This document shows positions 3,134-11,077 of a stretch of 64,000 bases of DNA, piece after piece. Each line of letters starts with the position of its first letter. The first letter of the stretch is position 1. Under the pieces are notes generated by a model that had not been told where the DNA came from, searched no databases, and saw only the letters and a program-made list of their open reading frames with translations. The stretch is from Terriglobia bacterium (GTDB taxonomy: Bacteria; Acidobacteriota; Terriglobia; Bryobacterales; UBA6623), in assembly GCA_009838515.1 (NCBI GenBank), contig VXRL01000002.1:83248-147247 (forward strand), in the 5' to 3' direction. The position numbers and the translations under genes were made by a program.

Positions 3134-4000
3134 GTGAAGATCAACGTGTTTGGCGCCACGGGCGGTCTCGGATCTCGTGTCGTCGATGCTTTGCTCGGTC
3201 GTGGCCTTCCCCCCGAGGACTTGATTGCGTGCTCCCGAAGTCCGGATAAGGTCCGGCGATTCAAGCACCTGGGAATCGATATCCGCCGGGCCGACTACGA
3301 GGTGCCTGAGACGCTTTCGGGCGCCCTGGAGGGAACCGACGTGCTGATGCTGATCCCGAGCGCCAGCGATGTGGAGCCCCGGATCGTCCAGCACTCTAAC
3401 ATCCTGGACGCGGCGCGTTCCGCGCGCGTGAAGCGGGTGGTGCTAGCCAGCTCCAGCGCGGCGCGAACGGACTCGAAATTCCTGATCGCTCCTTATCTGG
3501 TGTACGCGGAGTCAAGGCTTCGGACCAGCGGCCTGGGATGGACCATCCTGCGAAACGGCATCTACCTGGACCCTCTTGTCGATTGGGCGCCGGCACTCGC
3601 TGCGATGGGCCGACTCCCGTATCCGGTTAGCAGGGGCCGGGTCGCATATGTGTCTCGGGACGATCTTGCGCGAGCATGCGCGGCAGCGTGCGCGCATGAC
3701 CAACATGCCGAGCAAGTCTATGAACTGACTGGCCTGCGCGCCTTGTCGATGCCCGACCTAGCGTCCGCTCTGACCGACGCGACCGGGCAGACAATTCTGT
3801 TCGACGAGGTGACGGAGGAGCAGTTCGCCGAGCTCTGCCGTGCGGACAAAGTCCCGGAGCCCGACATTGCGATCCTCACCTCCTTGTACCGCGCTGCCGA
3901 TCACGGAGAGTTCGAGCATGTAAGCGACGACATTCGTCTATTGACCGGCATCCCGCCAACAGCTGCTCGGGACTATCTGAGGGAATCGCTCCGAACATAG
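3134..4000 (+). CDS. NmrA-like / atypical SDR NAD(P)-binding protein
   Basis: N-terminal Rossmann motif VKINVFGATGGLGSRVV. I chose the GTG at 3134, which is preceded by GGGAGG (3118-3123) and TAGGAT (3108-3113). An ATG at 3104 is an alternative start, and the track ORF runs from 2945. Confidence 0.75.
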   Translation: MKINVFGATGGLGSRVVDALLGRGLPPEDLIACSRSPDKVRRFKHLGIDIRRADYEVPETLSGALEGTDVLMLIPSASDVEPRIVQHSNILDAARSARVKRVVLASSSAARTDSKFLIAPYLVYAESRLRTSGLGWTILRNGIYLDPLVDWAPALAAMGRLPYPVSRGRVAYVSRDDLARACAAACAHDQHAEQVYELTGLRALSMPDLASALTDATGQTILFDEVTEEQFAELCRADKVPEPDIAILTSLYRAADHGEFEHVSDDIRLLTGIPPTAARDYLRESLRT

Positions 4001-4381: not shown

Positions 4382-5578
4382 GTGAGAGGACTGCTACTGA
4401 CCACGCTGCTGGCACTGTCGGCGATAGGAGGGATCGCGCAAGTGACGGAATTCACCATCCGAGTCGAGGATGCCGCCCTCGCCGACCTCAAGGCGCGTCT
4501 GGAGCGGACGCGGCTGCCAGACCAGATCCCAGGCTCTGGCTGGGACTATGGATCGGATCGGGCGTACATGGAAGAGCTGCTGGAGTATTGGCGAACCGCG
4601 TATGACTGGCGCAAGCACGAAGCTCAACTGAACGAGTTGCCGCACTTCAAGACGTCCGTCGATGGCATCGACATGCATTTCGTGCATGTTCGCTCGAAGG
4701 AAGACTCGGCGATGCCCTTGGTGATAACTCACGGCTGGCCGGGGTCGGTGTACGAGTTCATGGACGTGATCGGTCCGCTGACCGATCCGGTTGGCCACGG
4801 GGGCAGGGCCGAGGATGCGTTCCACCTGGTCTTGCCGTCGATGCCTGGGTACGGCTTTTCAGGGCCGGCCCACCAGCGGGGCATGAGCGTTGACAGTGTG
4901 GCCGGCGTGGTTGCCAAGCTCATGGACCGTCTCGGCTATGAGCGGTACGCGGCTCAAGGCGGGGATTGGGGCTCGGGTGTCTCGTCTTGGCTGGCCCGCG
5001 ATTATCCCGACCGCTTGATCGGAATCCACCTCAACATGGTCGGCGGCGGTCCGCCCGCGGGCATGCAGGATCCCGAAAAAGGTATCCCTGAGTGGGAACT
5101 GAAGCGCTACCGGGAGCGCGCCGAGTGGTGGCGCGGCGAGAATGCCTACGGGAACATTCAGGGCTCCAAGCCCCTTACGCTGGCGTACGGTCTCAATGAC
5201 TCCCCGGCCGGCCTAGCGGCGTGGGTGGTGGAGAAGTTCCGCGCCTGGAGCGACTGCGGCGGCGATGTGGAGAGCCGGTTCACCAAGGACCAGCTCTTGA
5301 CCAACATCATGCTTTACTGGCTAACCGAGAGCATGCCTTCAGCCGTCCGGCTGTACTACGAGTCCCGTCGTAGCGGCCGCCAGCAGGTGCGCAGCGAAGT
5401 GCCGACTGCGATCGCGGTCTTTCCGGGCGAGATCTTCTTCTCGCCCCGCAAATGGGTAGAGACTCGCTACAACGTGCTGCAGTGGACCGAGATGCCGCGC
5501 GGAGGGCACTTCGCGGCGATGGAGGAGCCGGAACTCTACGTTGAGGACGTGGTCAAGTTCTTTCGCGGTCTACGCTGA
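4382..5578 (+). CDS. epoxide hydrolase (microsomal-type EH N-terminal domain plus alpha/beta hydrolase) with N-terminal signal or anchor
   Basis: The EHN-domain region reads EDAALADLKARLERTRLPDQIPGSGWDYGSDRAYMEELLEYW. It also has HGWPGS and a GGDWG nucleophile elbow. The hydrophobic N-terminus is VRGLLLTTLLALSAIGG. Confidence 0.85.
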   Translation: MRGLLLTTLLALSAIGGIAQVTEFTIRVEDAALADLKARLERTRLPDQIPGSGWDYGSDRAYMEELLEYWRTAYDWRKHEAQLNELPHFKTSVDGIDMHFVHVRSKEDSAMPLVITHGWPGSVYEFMDVIGPLTDPVGHGGRAEDAFHLVLPSMPGYGFSGPAHQRGMSVDSVAGVVAKLMDRLGYERYAAQGGDWGSGVSSWLARDYPDRLIGIHLNMVGGGPPAGMQDPEKGIPEWELKRYRERAEWWRGENAYGNIQGSKPLTLAYGLNDSPAGLAAWVVEKFRAWSDCGGDVESRFTKDQLLTNIMLYWLTESMPSAVRLYYESRRSGRQQVRSEVPTAIAVFPGEIFFSPRKWVETRYNVLQWTEMPRGGHFAAMEEPELYVEDVVKFFRGLR

Positions 5579-5581
5579 CGG

Positions 5582-5605
5582 GCCGTTGCCTGCGCGTGCA
5601 GCGGC
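5582..5605. terminator. hairpin between convergent stop codons
   Basis: GCCGTTGC (5582-5589) pairs with GCAGCGGC (5598-5605): 8 bp including one G-U, with an 8-nt loop. It sits between stop codons at 5576-5578 (+) and 5607-5609 (-). There is no U tract. Confidence 0.3.
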
Positions 5606-5606
5606 G

Positions 5607-6998
5607 CTACCGAGACGCGCTCGCGGCGAGTTCCTCGAGCTTGATCTGAATCTCCGCCTCCGGCAGCCACCGGCCGCGCACCATGACGCCGGCACGCTTG
5701 GCTACGTTGGCTGCGTCATCCAGCGGATTGGCTTCGAGCAGCACCAAGTCGGCACGGGCACCGACCTCGACTCGCCCGAACGCGTCGGACCCGAAATGCT
5801 CGGCCGCGTTCTTCGTTGCGGACGCCAGGATTTCGTAGGGCGTCAGGCCGGCGGACGCCATGATGCTGATTTCGCGGTGGATCGAAAAGCCCGGCACGTT
5901 GAAGATCTGCGGCGCGTCAGTGCCGAACGCGATCCGCGCTCCCTCGTCCTGCAATGCCTTGAGGATCTTCTTGCGTATCTCGATCACGCGCGCGCCGGAC
6001 TCGGCGTTCAGGCGCTCTTGGCGGCTGTTCTGCGATTCGATCCAGGCATCGACTGTTGCGCGGGGCAGGTACTTTAGCTCGTCGAAACCGGCATAGTGTT
6101 CTGTCGGCACGTCGGCGTTGAACGTTTCCCACAAAGCCATCGTTGGCACTGCTGAAGCGTTGGCGAGCTTGGTCGCTGAAACCAGGGCCGGAATCTTCTT
6201 CTCGTCGGCGTGCAACCCCATCTCGCGGCCGCGCGTGGCGGCGTCTGCGTTCTTGATCGGCGAATCGTCGGCTTCCAGCGCATCCAGGTAATTGTCCAAG
6301 TGGTCGATGCTGCCTTGGCCTGCTGCCAGCGCATGCAGCAGCCCGACCGGATTGGGAACGTGCCCGCCGAAGGGGATTCCCGCCAGGGTCGCTTCCTCGG
6401 CGATGGCGTCGTACACGTCCACGCTGAGTCCCTCGAGGATCTTGAGCGAGTCGAAGCCAGCCTCGTGCTGTTCGCGGACGCGTTGCCGGGCAACGTCTGC
6501 AGTCAAGTCCTCGGTCGCACGAAAGGCTGGCCCAGCCGCATAGATCGTCGGCCCCAGCCGCCTTCCTCCTGCGATCTGCTTGCGAAGCTCCAGATGCGAC
6601 GCGTTGCCGAGCATGCCGCGCACGGTTGTCACGCCGTTGGAGAGGAACAGGAAGAGGATCCGGTCGACCTCTTCGGGCGGGGTGTCAGCGCCGGGCAGGT
6701 GTGCGTGCATCTCGGTGAGGCCGGGAACGAGGTACTTGCCGCTCCCGTCCACGACCAGCGCTCCCCTTGGGACCTTGATCTCGGACGTCGGCCCCAGCTC
6801 GCTGATCTTCCCCAGCGAGGTGACGACGGTCTGGCCGTGCAAGACACGCTCGTTGTCCATCGGCACGACGCTGGCGTTAACGAAGGCTACCGTTCCCTCC
6901 GGCGCGCTCTGGCAGCCCAGCCCAAGCAGAAACGCGGACACTGCCGCCAGATACTTCGCGCTCATGACTCCTGCTCCGTCGAATGCATGCGTTGCCAC
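5607..6998 (-). CDS. amidohydrolase-family metallohydrolase, exported (lipoprotein-like signal)
   Basis: 463 aa. It has the HxH metal motif EMHAHLPG and an amidohydrolase-fold C-terminus (GTDAP...). The N-terminal signal contains LLGLGC. Confidence 0.8.
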   Translation of the reverse strand: MATHAFDGAGVMSAKYLAAVSAFLLGLGCQSAPEGTVAFVNASVVPMDNERVLHGQTVVTSLGKISELGPTSEIKVPRGALVVDGSGKYLVPGLTEMHAHLPGADTPPEEVDRILFLFLSNGVTTVRGMLGNASHLELRKQIAGGRRLGPTIYAAGPAFRATEDLTADVARQRVREQHEAGFDSLKILEGLSVDVYDAIAEEATLAGIPFGGHVPNPVGLLHALAAGQGSIDHLDNYLDALEADDSPIKNADAATRGREMGLHADEKKIPALVSATKLANASAVPTMALWETFNADVPTEHYAGFDELKYLPRATVDAWIESQNSRQERLNAESGARVIEIRKKILKALQDEGARIAFGTDAPQIFNVPGFSIHREISIMASAGLTPYEILASATKNAAEHFGSDAFGRVEVGARADLVLLEANPLDDAANVAKRAGVMVRGRWLPEAEIQIKLEELAASASR

Positions 6999-7032
6999 GC
7001 TTGGTGGCCCGCTGCAATCTTAACCCTCGGGA

Positions 7033-7512
7033 TCAGTCTTGTGGCTCCTGGAAGTTCTCGACCGTGTACTCGTAGTACGGCCCGCGCAGGAATCCGAGGA
7101 AGATTTCGTTGACCAGCTTGAGCGCCTTGCTGACGGCATAGTCCCAGTCGCCGTCCAGGCTCTGCAGCGATACCGACACCGATCCCTTCCGATTCCTGCT
7201 CTGCACCTTGGCGCGTTGCGAGTCGATGCGTCTGTGCCTCGGGAGCGTTTCGCCGCTCAGCCTGCGCAGGAAGCTCCGGAGATCCCTGTAGAGCGGGGCT
7301 GTCGGTGCCAGATTGGGCAACAGGTCGCGAAACTCGAGTGTGCCGCGGCGCGGATCGAAGATCAATCGGATAGGCCTCTCGCGCAGCCAGACGAAGGAGC
7401 ATTCCAAGCGGTTCCGCCGCCGTGCAGCGGCGAAGGAGCGGAAGACGCCTCGGTCGGCGCGCGAGCGCAGCAGCGCGTCGACGCTGTCCAACGGGTCCGG
7501 AGACTCCGGCAT
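7033..7512 (-). CDS. hypothetical cytoplasmic protein, translationally coupled to the upstream TPP enzyme
   Basis: 159 aa (MPESPDPL...ENFQEPQD). Its ATG shares one base with the TGA of the upstream gene (TGATG at 7514-7510). It has no signal peptide. The track merges it into a spurious 697-aa ORF. Confidence 0.6.
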   Translation of the reverse strand: MPESPDPLDSVDALLRSRADRGVFRSFAAARRRNRLECSFVWLRERPIRLIFDPRRGTLEFRDLLPNLAPTAPLYRDLRSFLRRLSGETLPRHRRIDSQRAKVQSRNRKGSVSVSLQSLDGDWDYAVSKALKLVNEIFLGFLRGPYYEYTVENFQEPQD

Positions 7513-9464
7513 CAGTGGTAGTAAGCCATGCAGCCCGGCTCGACCTTCTGCAGCAGGCCCGGGGGATAGTCCCGAGCGCTCCAGAACTCCTTGATCGCCT
7601 GGCAGTTGATGACCGTCGAGAGCCGCTCGTCTGCTGCCGCCTTGTAACTGCGTGCCAAGGCCGGAGCCAGGTCCTCGGCCTTGGTCACGTATTCTCCGCG
7701 CGCCCCGAGGGCTTCGCCGATCTTCTCGTAGCGCAGATTCTCTTGGAACAGGTACATGTGCTGGGCCCGTGCAGTCTCGCTGCGCCCGCCGCTGGCACCG
7801 GAGCGCCAGACCCCCCAAGCGTTGTTGTTGTACACCACCATGATCGTGGGAATCCGGTACTTGCTCAGAGTCTCCATCTCCATGCCCGAGTAGGCGAATC
7901 CAGCATCGCCCGTAACGGCGAGCACAGGCGCGCCCTTGTAGGGGGCTTGCGGGCCCGTGCCCTGCTGCACGGCTGCGCCGGCTCCGACCGTGTAGCCGAC
8001 GTCTGGCCCGATCGCTCCGTACTGGTAGGCCCCGTTGCAAATCTGGCCCGGGCGGAACGCTCTGAGCCGTCGGCGCGTGTAGCGCCCGACGCCGTAACCG
8101 CCCGACACCACGGTGGTTTGCTCCTTCGGAATATCTCCCTTGTAGAGCAGGTTCTCGATCTCGGCAGCAATCACTGCCGGATGGACGCACCCGGCCTGGG
8201 CGCTGTACTTGAGGCCGAGCTTGTAGTGCTCGTCGTTCTCTGCTTCGAACGCTGCGCGGGCCGCCGCCAACTCGTCGCGCCAAGCCGGGCGCTTCTTCTT
8301 GGGCAAGGCCTCGGCAAGTGCCTCCAAGGCGGCCTTTTCGCAGCTCACGATGCCGAGGTCGATCGGCAGGTTGCGCCCGATATCGGCAGCGTCCGGGTCG
8401 ATGCGAATGTAGGCGACGTCCGGATCGAACGAGTATTCGCCGATGTTGGGCATGCAGTACTGTCCGACCAAGACCACGAGGTCGGCGCTCAACAGGGCGT
8501 CGGGGGCTGCGTTGGCCGATAGGGGGTGCTCGTCGCCGAAGTGGCCTCGGCTGGGGCCCGATTCCACGACCGCGATGTCGGCTTTCTCGGCGACGGCCTT
8601 GAGCGCGTCCCAAGCCTTGCTGTAGAAGACGCCTGCGCTGGCCACGATGATCGGGCGTTCCGCCTTGGAGATCATGCTTGCCGCCTTGGCGATTTCCTTG
8701 GGCGACGGATGCGGACGCGATTCGGTGCGGTATTTCGACTTGTCGTAGAAGAATCGCAGATCCTCCGCGCTGTCGAAGCGCTCGCGCGCCACTTCGCCCG
8801 GAAAGTCCAGATGGACCGGGCGCGGCACGCCAGTCTTGAGCTGGCGGAAGGCGTAACCGGCGTATTCGTGCACGCGCTCGGGATTGATGAGGCGCTTGCC
8901 GTACTTCTTCATGCCTTCGGTCGTTGGCTGCTGGTAGACCCGCTGGATGCCGTGCTCTGTGTCTTCGAGCCCCAGCGTCATGTTGCTGGCCAGCACCAGC
9001 AGCGGCGAGCGCGCCGAGTTGGCGGCGGCGATGTTCATGATCATGTTCGTGAAGCCGGGGCCCTCGGTGCCCGATGCGGCCACGACCTCGCCGGTCACGC
9101 GGGCGAACCCGTCCGCAGCGGCGCACATCATGCCTTCGGTGCGGCCGCCGTAGCTGGGAATGCCCTCCGAGGCGATGGCGTTGATCACGACATAGTTGCC
9201 CGGGGCGCAGAACAGCGCGGCCAGTCCCTCGGCCTTGCAGGCCTTGGCGAAGATCTGAGCGCCTGTCATCGGGAAGTCGGGAGGCTTGGAATCTTCCGCG
9301 AGGCTCGCTGGCACCTCGCTCGGGAGCTTGATGTTGCCGTCGTGTCGCTCGGTGGTCGATGCCGCCGCGTCAGCGCCGGCCGCTACCGCCGCCGCCACCG
9401 CTCCCTTGGTCACGAATCCGCGCCTCGAAACGGTGCGCTCCGCCTTGCTGTGCTTGCTCGCCAT
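7512..9464 (-). CDS. thiamine-pyrophosphate-dependent enzyme (acetolactate synthase / pyruvate oxidase superfamily) with twin-arginine signal
   Basis: The TPP motif is [31 protein letters not shown] catalytic-Glu region ([20 protein letters not shown]) is present. The N-terminus [21 protein letters not shown] looks like a Tat signal. AGGAGA lies 7 nt upstream of the ATG at 9464. Confidence 0.85.
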
Positions 9465-9511
9465 GGTTGGTCTCCTTTGGTTGCCGTGTGCTCGCCACCG
9501 CGCCGCTATCT

Positions 9512-9979
9512 TCAAGGCGTCTCGGGGCGAAGCTCCTTTGGTCCGATGCTTCGAATGAAGAGCACGACTCGCCAGATCTCGTCATCTTGCAGCTGCTTGC
9601 CGAACGGTGGCATTTCGTGGCCGGCGCCGTCCCGGATCGACACAAAGATCTCGCCGTCCGTCGCTCCGTAACGCCACTCGTCCGGATCGCGCAGGCTCGG
9701 GGCCTCGAAGTCCGGATTCGCCTGGGCCCTGCCGTCGGCGCCGTGGCAGTATTGACACAGCCGCAGATAGGCGTTGCGGCCGGCCTTGACGGCCTCGGGC
9801 GCGTAAGCGACCGGGTTTTGCAAGGCCTTGGCCTGCTCTGCCGGCATGCGTTCCGCGGCCGCGCCAGGGGCGACCGCCAGAACCGCCCCGCAGGCGAGGC
9901 CGCACAGCGCCGCGCGCGCCTCGGTCCGCGTGAGACTAGTGCGGATTCGCCCTGCCATTCGCACAGACAGCATAGCCAC
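9512..9979 (-). CDS. class I c-type cytochrome, exported
   Basis: 155 aa with a signal peptide and a single heme motif CQYCHG. A distal Met region (GHEMPPFG) is present. It lies 47 nt upstream of the TPP enzyme on the same strand. Confidence 0.85.
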
Positions 9980-10140
9980 TCGAGGCTTGCGCTGCCAAGT
10001 TCGGGGCGAAAAAACGAAAGACGCTTCGAGGCGGTGGCCTCAGAGCGTCTTCGAAAGGGTGCCGGAGGGGTAAGTCAGGGGTCTTTGGTTGAGGATTAGC
10101 TTGCGTTGGTGGGGTTGTCCCCCCCGGCACTCATTACTCT

Positions 10141-10240
10141 ACTGGATTCCATAGGCCGTTGCAAGCGAATTTACAGATTTTTGTAGAATATTTTTCACGT
10201 TTGCTCATAACAGATTGAAAACAAATATGTTACGAGAGAT
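10141..10240 (-). promoter_or_regulatory. AT-rich intergenic island, probable promoter region of the cytochrome c / TPP operon
   Basis: About 100 bp that is far more AT-rich than anything nearby (for example ttacagatttttgtagaatatttttcacg). It lies upstream of the cytochrome c gene on the minus strand. I could not assign exact -35 or -10 boxes. Confidence 0.3.
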
Positions 10241-10285
10241 TCCAGCGCGCTCCGAGGGCACCGCAAAGAATCCGTGAATAGGGAT

Positions 10286-11077
10286 TTAGCGTAATGTCAG
10301 CGCTACGGGACGTATTGGCGAGCCCGTGGCGCCCCGTAGCCGCAGCGGTGATGCTGCGAAGACAAACTCGCAGACGCCTTCTGCGGAAAGGCTCTCGAGG
10401 TCCAGCGCCTCGATGATGTGAATGCCGCTCTCGACCAACAGGTGGACATGCACGGGCATGCTCGGGGCGGGCACGAACTCGAACGCGATCGTGTCGGAAC
10501 CGCCAGCGAACGCTCCCTTGGCGCTCAGCCAGCCCGCCGCCTCCCGGTTGACGCCAGGGCAGTGCAGGCCATTCACGTACCGGCCAGCATCGTGCCAGTA
10601 GCGCGCCCAACCCGTGCGCACCAGCACGATGTCCCCGGAGGAGACCGTGATGCCAGAGCGATCTGCCGCCCGCTCGAGGTGGTCGGCGCCTACGACGAAG
10701 TCATCGGGCAGCACTCCGAAGCCCTCGGTGGAGGCGACGTCGAGCAGGACTCCGCGGCGAAAGATCGGTGCGATGGTATCGACATGGTGCACTGACAGGC
10801 CGGTCGTGTACGACTGACAACCGACGGCATCAGCTCCGCCGAAGAGTTTTCCATTCAGGGAAAAGTGGCACAACGCGTCGATGTGCGTTCCCACATGCCC
10901 GCCGAGCGCGAGCGCATCTGCAGCCGCGCTGACTCCGTCGCGGGTTGTCTCCCCGTGAGCCTTGTTGAGCCCGTACAAGAACGGCGGATGGTTTGGGTGG
11001 TGGGGCATGCCGGGATAGTACGGCTGTGCCAGATCGATGACGCGCGACTCGTCTAGGCGCTGCAGCAAGTCCTGCAT
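10286..11077 (-). CDS. cyclase-family protein (kynurenine formamidase-like)
   Basis: 263 aa. It has the cyclase-family metal motif GGHVGTHIDALCHF. Confidence 0.8.
   Translation of the reverse strand: MQDLLQRLDESRVIDLAQPYYPGMPHHPNHPPFLYGLNKAHGETTRDGVSAAADALALGGHVGTHIDALCHFSLNGKLFGGADAVGCQSYTTGLSVHHVDTIAPIFRRGVLLDVASTEGFGVLPDDFVVGADHLERAADRSGITVSSGDIVLVRTGWARYWHDAGRYVNGLHCPGVNREAAGWLSAKGAFAGGSDTIAFEFVPAPSMPVHVHLLVESGIHIIEALDLESLSAEGVCEFVFAASPLRLRGATGSPIRPVALTLR

Follow-up and report, generated by a model that had tools for sequence, protein, structure and literature searches.

A thiamine diphosphate enzyme with a twin-arginine signal, a cytochrome c and a small partner protein in Acidobacteriota: a putative, hitherto undescribed route for the oxidation of small molecules beyond the cytoplasm

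What would a thiamine diphosphate (ThDP) enzyme of the decarboxylase type do if it carried a twin-arginine translocation (Tat) signal and were encoded next to an exported cytochrome c, when all characterised members of its superfamily are, to our knowledge, found in the cytoplasm or on the cytoplasmic face of the membrane? This question is raised by a locus of the Terriglobia bacterium assembly GCA_009838515.1 (a sponge-associated acidobacterium; 5.84 Mb in 99 contigs, 99% complete), where we analysed a window of 64,000 nt on contig VXRL01000002.1, whose coordinates are used throughout. The minus strand of this window carries, head to tail, four genes coding for a cytochrome c, a ThDP enzyme of 650 amino acids, a protein of 159 amino acids and an amidohydrolase (table 1). 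The cytochrome stop codon is separated from the enzyme ATG by 47 nt, and the TGA of the enzyme overlaps the ATG of the 159-amino-acid open reading frame (ORF) as TGATG. These elements of the cytochrome, the enzyme and the small ORF had all been described in the original prediction made for this locus, and all of them are indeed present, with small corrections to start sites. Taken together, the three genes appear to provide a route, not described so far, by which small molecules are oxidised beyond the cytoplasm.

The enzyme, its signal and its two partners

The enzyme ATG lies nine bases downstream of AAGGAG, and the predicted protein matches the three Pfam domains of the superfamily above their cut-offs, namely PF02776 (TPP_enzyme_N, or PYR; 1.4e-20), PF00205 (TPP_enzyme_M; 1.3e-23) and PF02775 (TPP_enzyme_C, or PP; 3.2e-19). 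In an alignment of 14 diverse clade members, reaching down to 54% identity, the catalytic glutamate E110 (within RTEG), which aligns with the conserved glutamate of the HKA synthase BbmA, is invariant, as are G519-D520-A521 and N546-N548, which form the ThDP-Mg motif (GDA...NNN). By these three domains, this glutamate and this cofactor motif, we assign the predicted protein to the POX/ALS/OXC (decarboxylase-type) ThDP superfamily. Within the superfamily, it stands well apart from every named subfamily (AHAS, OXC, HACL, Xsc, GCL, IolD and others): it scores below every NCBIfam cut-off, the best match reaching 201 bits versus 587, with OXC at 170 versus 557, HACL at 149 versus 600 and AHAS at 159 versus 538. 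Among 1.84 billion cluster representatives, full-length relatives were found at 829, 731 and 514 bits (60, 56 and 42% identity), and the next full-length match dropped to 219 bits and about 33% identity, at the level of generic ThDP enzymes; this gap between 514 and 219 bits argues that the enzyme forms a distinct and compact clade. Its closest matches (88-99% identity) come from metagenome-assembled genomes (MAGs) of Bryobacterales or Terriglobia, many of which bear sponge-metagenome isolate labels (SB06xx, RHO).

The proposal that this enzyme starts with a twin-arginine-type signal holds well. In the window copy, SRRGFV is followed by a hydrophobic stretch and by a predicted cleavage site, ADA|A, after which the mature protein would start with AAS. 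Neither arginine (R14, R15) varies among the 14 aligned members, and the N-termini of homologues (VSRRGF, VSRRKI, VSRREFL, VSRRDFL, STRRGFF, FSRRKFI, SPSRRNFM) likewise continue into an Ala/Gly-rich hydrophobic stretch and AxA-like sites; SRRxF[LVIAF] is present in most inspected members, and SRRxF recurs down to 56% identity. The curated model TIGR01409 is passed by four of eight family N-termini (homologues at 20.1, 24.7, 19.5 and 21.3 bits), another reaching 15.5 bits and two giving no match, and the window copy scores 15.9 bits versus a cut-off of 16.7. We therefore regard the predicted Tat signal as well supported at the level of the family, the window copy being borderline by score alone. 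The source genome also encodes TatC (208 bits) and two TatA/B genes. From this signal we infer that the enzyme is exported via Tat. Between the signal and the catalytic core runs a linker of the pattern I-K/R-I/L-P-x-E ... P-x-D/E-F-P-M, in which P48, P61, F64, P65 and M66 vary little or not at all among the 14 members; residues 1-62 receive a predicted local distance difference test score (pLDDT) below 50 in the AlphaFold2 (AF2) model of the enzyme.

What most strongly suggests that this enzyme does not work alone is the company that it keeps. We looked at its neighbourhood in two samples: 301 Acidobacteriota genomes, in which the enzyme clade was called at E<1e-100, and 80 loci from GTDB species genomes whose enzyme is at least 64% identical. 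In the former, the enzyme and the small protein are found in the same 15 genomes, with 18 genes each that are always adjacent; copy numbers match, four genomes being reported with two of each. In the latter, the small gene lies beside the enzyme in 71 of the 80 loci, and five of the rest are cut short by the edge of a contig. A genome-wide search for the four remaining loci recovered the small gene elsewhere in three genomes (beside a second enzyme copy in two, and alone, about 40 kb away, in one); in the fourth, a draft MAG, the small gene was not found, a weak partial profile match (E 0.0015) being present just past the enzyme gene. The cytochrome is adjacent in 13 of 17 and in 74 of 80 loci (about 90% of 97), and the trio occurs in three gene orders, cytochrome-enzyme-small, enzyme-small-cytochrome and small-cytochrome-enzyme. 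Even the most distant traceable homologue of the small protein (P0193, 36% identity, on an unrelated metagenome contig) revealed no different genomic context and turned out to sit in the same trio, in the order cytochrome-enzyme-small, with a Tat motif and a start/stop overlap, and with an AraC-type regulator upstream. This linkage, which survives rearrangement across classes, is our main argument for the three proteins working together, and it bears out the expectation that orthologues would keep both the small protein (15 of 15 genomes) and the c-type cytochrome (74 of 80 loci) as partners. Beyond these three, we found no gene conserved among the examined loci that could point to the substrate.

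The cytochrome itself is recognised by its CQYCH motif and by matches to PF13442 (1e-13, 51.7 bits for a cut-off of 27) and PF00034 (5e-8, 34.5 bits for a cut-off of 21.3), and its N-terminus is hydrophobic and ends with AAA|E.

The 159-amino-acid protein is of a more singular kind. It has no Pfam or NCBIfam match, even at E<=10 in a loose Pfam scan of 21 homologues, and when remote relatives were sought by profile, nothing came up but further "hypothetical" proteins of its own family, which comprises 662 clusters at 90% identity, all unnamed or "hypothetical" and devoid of any Pfam domain. These 662 clusters and the quality of its AF2 model (pLDDT 89, predicted template modelling score 0.84) argue that the small ORF is a real gene. 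The predicted fold (a helix, four strands, a helix, two strands, two helices) has no strong match in the PDB according to Foldseek: the best ones are ExsC, a chaperone of the type III secretion system (T3SS), with a probability of 1.0, an E-value of 6.5e-3 and template modelling scores (TM) of 0.45/0.52, and the structural-genomics entry 2plg, whereas SchA, Spa15 and VecA come lower in the list, with the MotA DNA-binding C-terminal domain and the regulator PA14_16140 in between. The protein lies outside the TorD/DmsD/NarJ and NapD families of Pfam and NCBIfam, its predicted fold being alpha/beta and not of the all-helical TorD type. Its isoelectric point (pI) is 10.2, when those of the mature enzyme and of the cytochrome are 6.2 and 5.2. 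A hydrophobic N-terminus or signal was seen in none of the nine longer homologues inspected, and the longer homologues carry basic extensions that resemble mis-called starts. At the same loci, the small protein evolves faster than the enzyme (38-49% versus 64-71% identity).

Some further ThDP genes may be mentioned here. Apparent enzyme-cytochrome fusions among homologues of odd length proved to be mis-called or frameshifted metagenome proteins. In a complete Acidobacteriota genome (G110), the ThDP orthologue (C1:3528166-3530072, locus L040) is split into two overlapping frames by a frameshift, which reflects either a pseudogene or a sequencing error. Finally, the genome of the window holds a second, unrelated ThDP paralogue (contig C82, locus L006, 1381-3303, minus strand), nearest to benzoylformate decarboxylase and PRK08327 and below their cut-offs, with an N-terminal extension LTRRGLSRKLAALGLTAAAAQS that TIGR01409 does not recognise; it adjoins two ORFs, one of them sulfatase-like and the other starting with what resembles a signal peptide (both assigned by eye), and is possibly a second exported ThDP enzyme.

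A possible mechanism and its alternatives

To ask what chemistry this enzyme may perform, we ranked solved structures by profile score. BbmA comes first with 199 bits, followed by OXC and HACL (162-179 bits for most entries, 142-179 for the full range) and by BAL/formolase (160 bits); glyoxylate carboligase (GCL), which binds flavin adenine dinucleotide (FAD), is found lower at 136 bits, the FAD-binding pyruvate oxidases at about 102 bits and ALS/AHAS at 86-95 bits. The AF2 model of the enzyme, computed from 14 sequences, is mediocre (pLDDT 70), leaves the signal and linker at one end and the C-terminal tail at the other unmodelled, and was used solely for ranking structural neighbours; in this ranking, HACS, OXC, HACL and BAL come first (TM 0.76-0.82). 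When the middle domain is taken alone, the ADP-binding OXC and HACL reach 47-63 bits, the FAD-binding GCL and POX 45 and 33-34 bits, and BAL 33 bits. The idea that the enzyme might contain a flavin thus finds no support: the whole protein and its middle domain are nearest to non-flavin enzymes of the OXC/HACL/BAL types, POX ranks far lower, and the presence of FAD appears unsupported. These nearest relatives use thioesters of coenzyme A (CoA), which are not obtainable in the periplasm, so the substrate must differ from theirs.

On balance, we consider it somewhat more probable than not that the ThDP enzyme is exported via Tat, oxidises an intermediate bound to its cofactor and hands the electrons on to cytochrome c, with a dedicated partner protein helping. 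According to this model, the 650-amino-acid enzyme would be made in the cytoplasm, where it would bind ThDP-Mg2+ and dimerise; the cofactor of this superfamily sits at the dimer interface, and cofactor loading must therefore precede export. The 159-amino-acid protein would bind the precursor at its signal peptide or at the disordered linker, and would escort or proofread it. The Tat translocase would then export the folded holoenzyme, whose signal would be cut after ADA. In the periplasm, the ThDP ylide would attack a small carbonyl compound, for which 2-oxo acids, aldehydes and alpha-hydroxyketones are the likeliest candidates, and the co-encoded monoheme cytochrome c would oxidise the resulting hydroxyalkyl-ThDP (enamine) by taking up two electrons, one at a time. 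Hydrolysis of the acyl-ThDP would then yield the acid, and the cytochrome would pass the electrons to the respiratory chain. A periplasmic ThDP enzyme coupled to the cytochrome had already been suggested for this locus; the conserved signal and the cytochrome linkage speak for that suggestion, the flavin it allowed for finds no backing, and the electron transfer itself is what we infer from the rest.

In the 14-member alignment, the cysteines C76, C86 and C621 and the last residue, H650, are invariant, as are E642, P643 and G644 within a C-terminal tail that is nearly invariant as a whole and that the most distant clade keeps as IEPG..AVAH. The three cysteines and the terminal histidine are not general residues of the ThDP family. 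They may, together with Y648-H650, form a metal, disulfide or electron-relay site; a putative Fe-S site made of the three cysteines, or an electron path through the invariant Tyr-Tyr-His tail, should be taken as leads and not as evidence.

Several observations weigh against the proposed mechanism. The nearest solved relatives of the enzyme (HKA synthase, OXC, HACL, BAL) are non-redox lyases or decarboxylases, and the pyruvate oxidases, the sole true ThDP oxidases, rank far lower; it follows that the enzyme has no recognisable electron-relay cofactor. The electron path is thus the weak point, since the enamine would have to be oxidised by a haem protein either directly or via protein residues. 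Moreover, about 10% of the loci lack an adjacent cytochrome, and the N-terminus of the window copy falls just under the curated cut-off. As for the small protein, its fold match is modest and extends to MotA C-terminal domains, and it is Arg-rich and basic (with a pI of 7.9-10.8 in 20 of 21 aligned sequences), unlike the T3SS chaperones of class I, which are small and acidic, with a pI of about 4-5. The exported enzyme could, like its nearest relatives, be a non-redox lyase, carboligase or decarboxylase, the cytochrome being a habitual neighbour that serves another step or another enzyme. Such an enzyme would fit with nearest relatives by sequence and fold that are all non-redox, with the lack of any sign of a flavin or an Fe-S cluster and with loci that have no cytochrome; yet the cytochrome accompanies the pair in three different gene orders and in more than one class, and no other dehydrogenase is conserved nearby, which makes this explanation improbable in our eyes. 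It could also be argued that the N-terminus is an uncleaved membrane anchor, or has no function, and that the enzyme resides at the membrane or in the cytoplasm, as the sub-threshold TIGR01409 score of the window copy and weak matches to Rieske-type Tat anchors might hint. However, the twin arginines are invariant, AxA-type sites are found in diverse members, four homologues pass the curated model and the partner cytochrome is itself predicted to be exported, so that we give this possibility hardly any credence. Returning to oxidation by the cytochrome, its most specific form would be a new class of enzyme, namely a flavin-free, Tat-exported ThDP dehydrogenase whose enamine is oxidised directly by the monoheme cytochrome c, and whose escort founds a new, T3SS-chaperone-like family of the Tat pathway; this full combination we put forward tentatively and with some doubt.

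With regard to the small protein, which had been predicted to be a maturation or proofreading chaperone, a dedicated cytoplasmic escort is the role that fits best. Strict co-occurrence with the enzyme, a sequence without signal and a predicted fold nearest to secretion chaperones agree with that prediction, when its position outside the known Tat-chaperone families and its strongly basic character do not. Alternatively, it could be a structural or regulatory subunit that has no signal of its own and is co-exported with the enzyme through Tat by "hitchhiking", as in hydrogenases and in those flavoprotein dehydrogenases of acetic acid bacteria that have three subunits, in which case the enzyme-cytochrome system would be unchanged. 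The strict one-to-one pairing with matching copy numbers, the translational coupling seen here, the absence of a signal in the nine longer homologues, the stable and well-folded domain predicted by AF2 and a basic charge complementing the acidic mature enzyme and cytochrome are all compatible with a subunit. A subunit is less easily reconciled with a protein that evolves much faster than the enzyme, with a small gene located some 40 kb away in one genome and second enzyme copies deprived of their own small gene in two, or with best fold matches that include secretion chaperones; we hold co-export to be possible, if unlikely. Less likely still is a DNA-binding regulator of the operon. The richness in arginine, the pI of about 10 and the matches to the MotA DNA-binding domain and to the operon regulator PA14_16140 would point in that direction, but the gene is distal in the operon, with a stop/start overlap that implies near-stoichiometric synthesis, the protein has neither a helix-turn-helix nor a Pfam DNA-binding domain, and a secretion chaperone heads the list of its fold matches. 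We thus deem a regulator very improbable.

Neighbouring genes and the upstream small RNA

An exported amidohydrolase had also been noted after the trio. It is not part of the conserved set: it is a lineage-specific neighbour, found downstream in 22 of the 80 loci, all of them from Bryobacterales with at least 83% enzyme identity, and absent from 16 loci of other families. The distance of 34 nt that separates it from the trio assumes a GTG start at 6998; ATG 6965 has a better ribosome-binding site (GGAG) and is the more likely start, from which the protein would begin with MSAKYLAAVSAFLLGLGC... and carry a lipoprotein-type signal. Pyrroloquinoline quinone (PQQ) dehydrogenases, VOC-type proteins and a penicillin-acylase-like gene likewise proved to be no more than lineage-specific neighbours. 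At four loci from some of the Acidobacteriota families (L031, L034, L035, L037), the trio stands near genes whose products, judged by eye, resemble an exported dehydrogenase of the quinohaemoprotein type, a VOC/glyoxalase-like protein with two domains and proteins with haem motifs, which would be a periplasmic redox neighbourhood that is not conserved elsewhere.

Upstream of the cytochrome gene, TTGGCA-18-TATGCT is the sole sigma-70-type match in the region 5400-10500. Its two hexamers are conserved across 16 Bryobacterales loci, when their flanks vary, and it is probably the promoter of the operon formed by the cytochrome, the ThDP enzyme and the small protein. This element overlaps the first two possible starts of the cytochrome, GTG 9979 and ATG 9973, which argues that the cytochrome probably starts at ATG 9958, behind a very short leader.

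The promoter-like element lies past the terminator of a small RNA, whose promoter region is the AT-rich island that had been noted ahead of the genes (GC content of 0.54 in 10001-10400, versus about 0.65 around). Over the 300 nt that precede the cytochrome gene, Bryobacterales loci whose enzymes are 85-99% identical share 75-94% identity, and the alignment of this region displays, in order, a palindrome TCTACA-N6/7-TGTAGA, a -35/-10 pair (TTGCAA/TTGCCA, 17 nt, TAGAGT), a core, a hairpin and a U-run. In the window, the palindrome reads TCTACA-N6-TGTAAA (10170-10187), and the -35 element TTGCAA (10159-10164) is followed, after 17 nt, by the -10 element TAGAGT (10136-10141). The almost invariant core spans 70 nt (GCCGGGGGGG...CCUCAACCAAAGACCCCUGA...CCCCUCCGGCACC). 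In the RNA, about 120 nt long here and about 75-100 nt elsewhere, a 5' stem formed by a G-run and a C-run carries a C-rich loop and is followed by a terminator hairpin at 10015-10053 (-28.2 kcal/mol, z -3.3) and by U6 (10009-10014). The sequence of this hairpin varies and its pairing is kept, ten pairs showing compensatory changes among 15 sequences.

No Rfam match was found for this RNA at E<=1, and on the same ground we discarded the idea that the AT-rich leader might hold a TPP riboswitch or another RNA of a known kind. A covariance model (R1) finds one copy in the source genome and matches in 109 of the 121 genomes of the order, those of 30-40 bits needing caution; the matches include genomes devoid of the trio (G269, G279). 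When 12 of the match regions were read, the core was seen in 11, pairs of the 5' G-run with each of the two C-runs were seen to switch from G-C to A-U, and the RNA was found upstream of dxr in six, accD in two and purA in one. It stands beside the trio only in the genus of the window, and in other genera usually ahead of dxr. Being order-wide, present in trio-less genomes and located upstream of dxr, accD and purA, it is rejected as a cis-leader of the trio operon: by all sequence indications, it is an independent small-RNA gene with its own promoter, whose place beside the operon is local, and the AT-rich island is not a feature of the operon. Its C-rich unpaired stretches (CCUCAACCAAAGACCCCUG) suggest a trans-acting regulator. 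At a related Bryobacterales locus (L067), three tandem copies of the small RNA (1829-1951, 2583-2705 and 3325-3447) are found around the cytochrome gene.

Table 1. Coordinates of the features discussed, in positions of the 64,000-nt window
Feature	Position	Strand	Basis or remark
Amidohydrolase, probable lipoprotein	5607..6998	-	PF01979 at 5e-24
159-amino-acid signal-less basic protein	7033..7512	-	Strict co-occurrence with the enzyme; no family match
650-amino-acid ThDP enzyme, distinct Tat-signal clade (P0001)	7512..9464	-	Pfam TPP_enzyme_N, _M, _C
Conserved C-terminal tail ending in an invariant His	7512..7547	-	Alignment
Conserved linker of about 30 residues, signal to catalytic core	9270..9365	-	Alignment; predicted disordered
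Twin-arginine signal peptide, residues 1-33 (SRRGFV, h-region, ADA|A)	9366..9464	-	RR invariant, 14 members
Monoheme class I cytochrome c, Sec-type signal peptide	9512..9979	-	Longest ORF from GTG 9979; likely start ATG 9958
Promoter-like element TTGGCA-18 nt-TATGCT	9969..9998	-	Hexamers conserved in 16-locus alignment
Conserved small RNA of about 120 nt	10009..10128	-	Hairpin, covariation, order-wide model hits
Small-RNA promoter and operator	10136..10187	-	Conserved blocks, 16-locus alignment

Significance and comparison with known systems

The combined trio is absent from the Pfam and NCBIfam libraries that we used, and no description of it was found in the literature searched. If the proposed mechanism were correct, it would bring a new cofactor chemistry to extracytoplasmic respiration and a new cofactor class to the substrates of Tat; in the flavin-free form put forward above, it would allow small 2-oxo acids or aldehydes to be respired periplasmically, with no need for uptake by the bacteria. 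For the abundant Acidobacteria of soil, of groundwater and of sponges, this could amount to an unrecognised route to energy from small carbonyl compounds. The 159-amino-acid protein would, for its part, define a new accessory family of at least 662 sequence clusters, all "hypothetical". The system is also a small one, with three genes.

By fold, the enzyme most resembles OXC, HACL and the related synthase, BAL and the HKA synthase BbmA (PDB 2q27, 2c31, 8vza, 7pt1, 2ag0, 8x3x), with which it shares the three-domain ThDP architecture, the catalytic glutamate and the GDx...NN motif, and which are its best matches both in sequence (160-199 bits by profile) and in structure. These enzymes are only 22-27% identical to it, are cytoplasmic and non-redox, act mostly on CoA thioesters, and none of them has a Tat signal, a cytochrome partner or a small protein, unlike the enzyme described here. 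By chemistry, the closest parallel is pyruvate oxidase/PoxB, which oxidises a carbonyl compound on ThDP and delivers the electrons to the respiratory chain, as proposed here. PoxB and its kin are distant, however (about 102 bits, 33 bits for the middle domain), work in the cytoplasm or at the inner face of the membrane, and use FAD to reduce quinone or O2 rather than cytochrome c.

The small protein, for its part, has a predicted alpha-beta fold that is nearest to the class I T3SS chaperones (ExsC, SchA, Spa15, VecA), whose characteristic fold runs alpha-beta-beta-beta-alpha-beta-beta-alpha, and to 2plg, and like these chaperones it is a small protein of cytoplasmic type encoded beside one specific secreted partner; it differs from them by the modest extent of the match (TM 0.45-0.52, 8-17% identity), by a pI of about 10 when theirs is acidic, and by a partner predicted to leave through Tat rather than by the type III route. 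In its overall design, finally, the trio is reminiscent of torCAD, napDAB, the sulfite dehydrogenase SorAB and the flavocytochromes c (FccAB, PchCF), where a twin-arginine, cofactor-loaded catalytic subunit goes together with a small cytochrome c, exported via Sec, as its electron partner and with an accessory protein devoid of a signal. The accessory proteins of torCAD and napDAB (TorD/DmsD/NarJ and NapD) belong to other families than the small protein and differ from it in predicted fold, and the catalytic subunits of these known systems carry molybdopterin or flavin, when the cofactor in the present locus would be ThDP.

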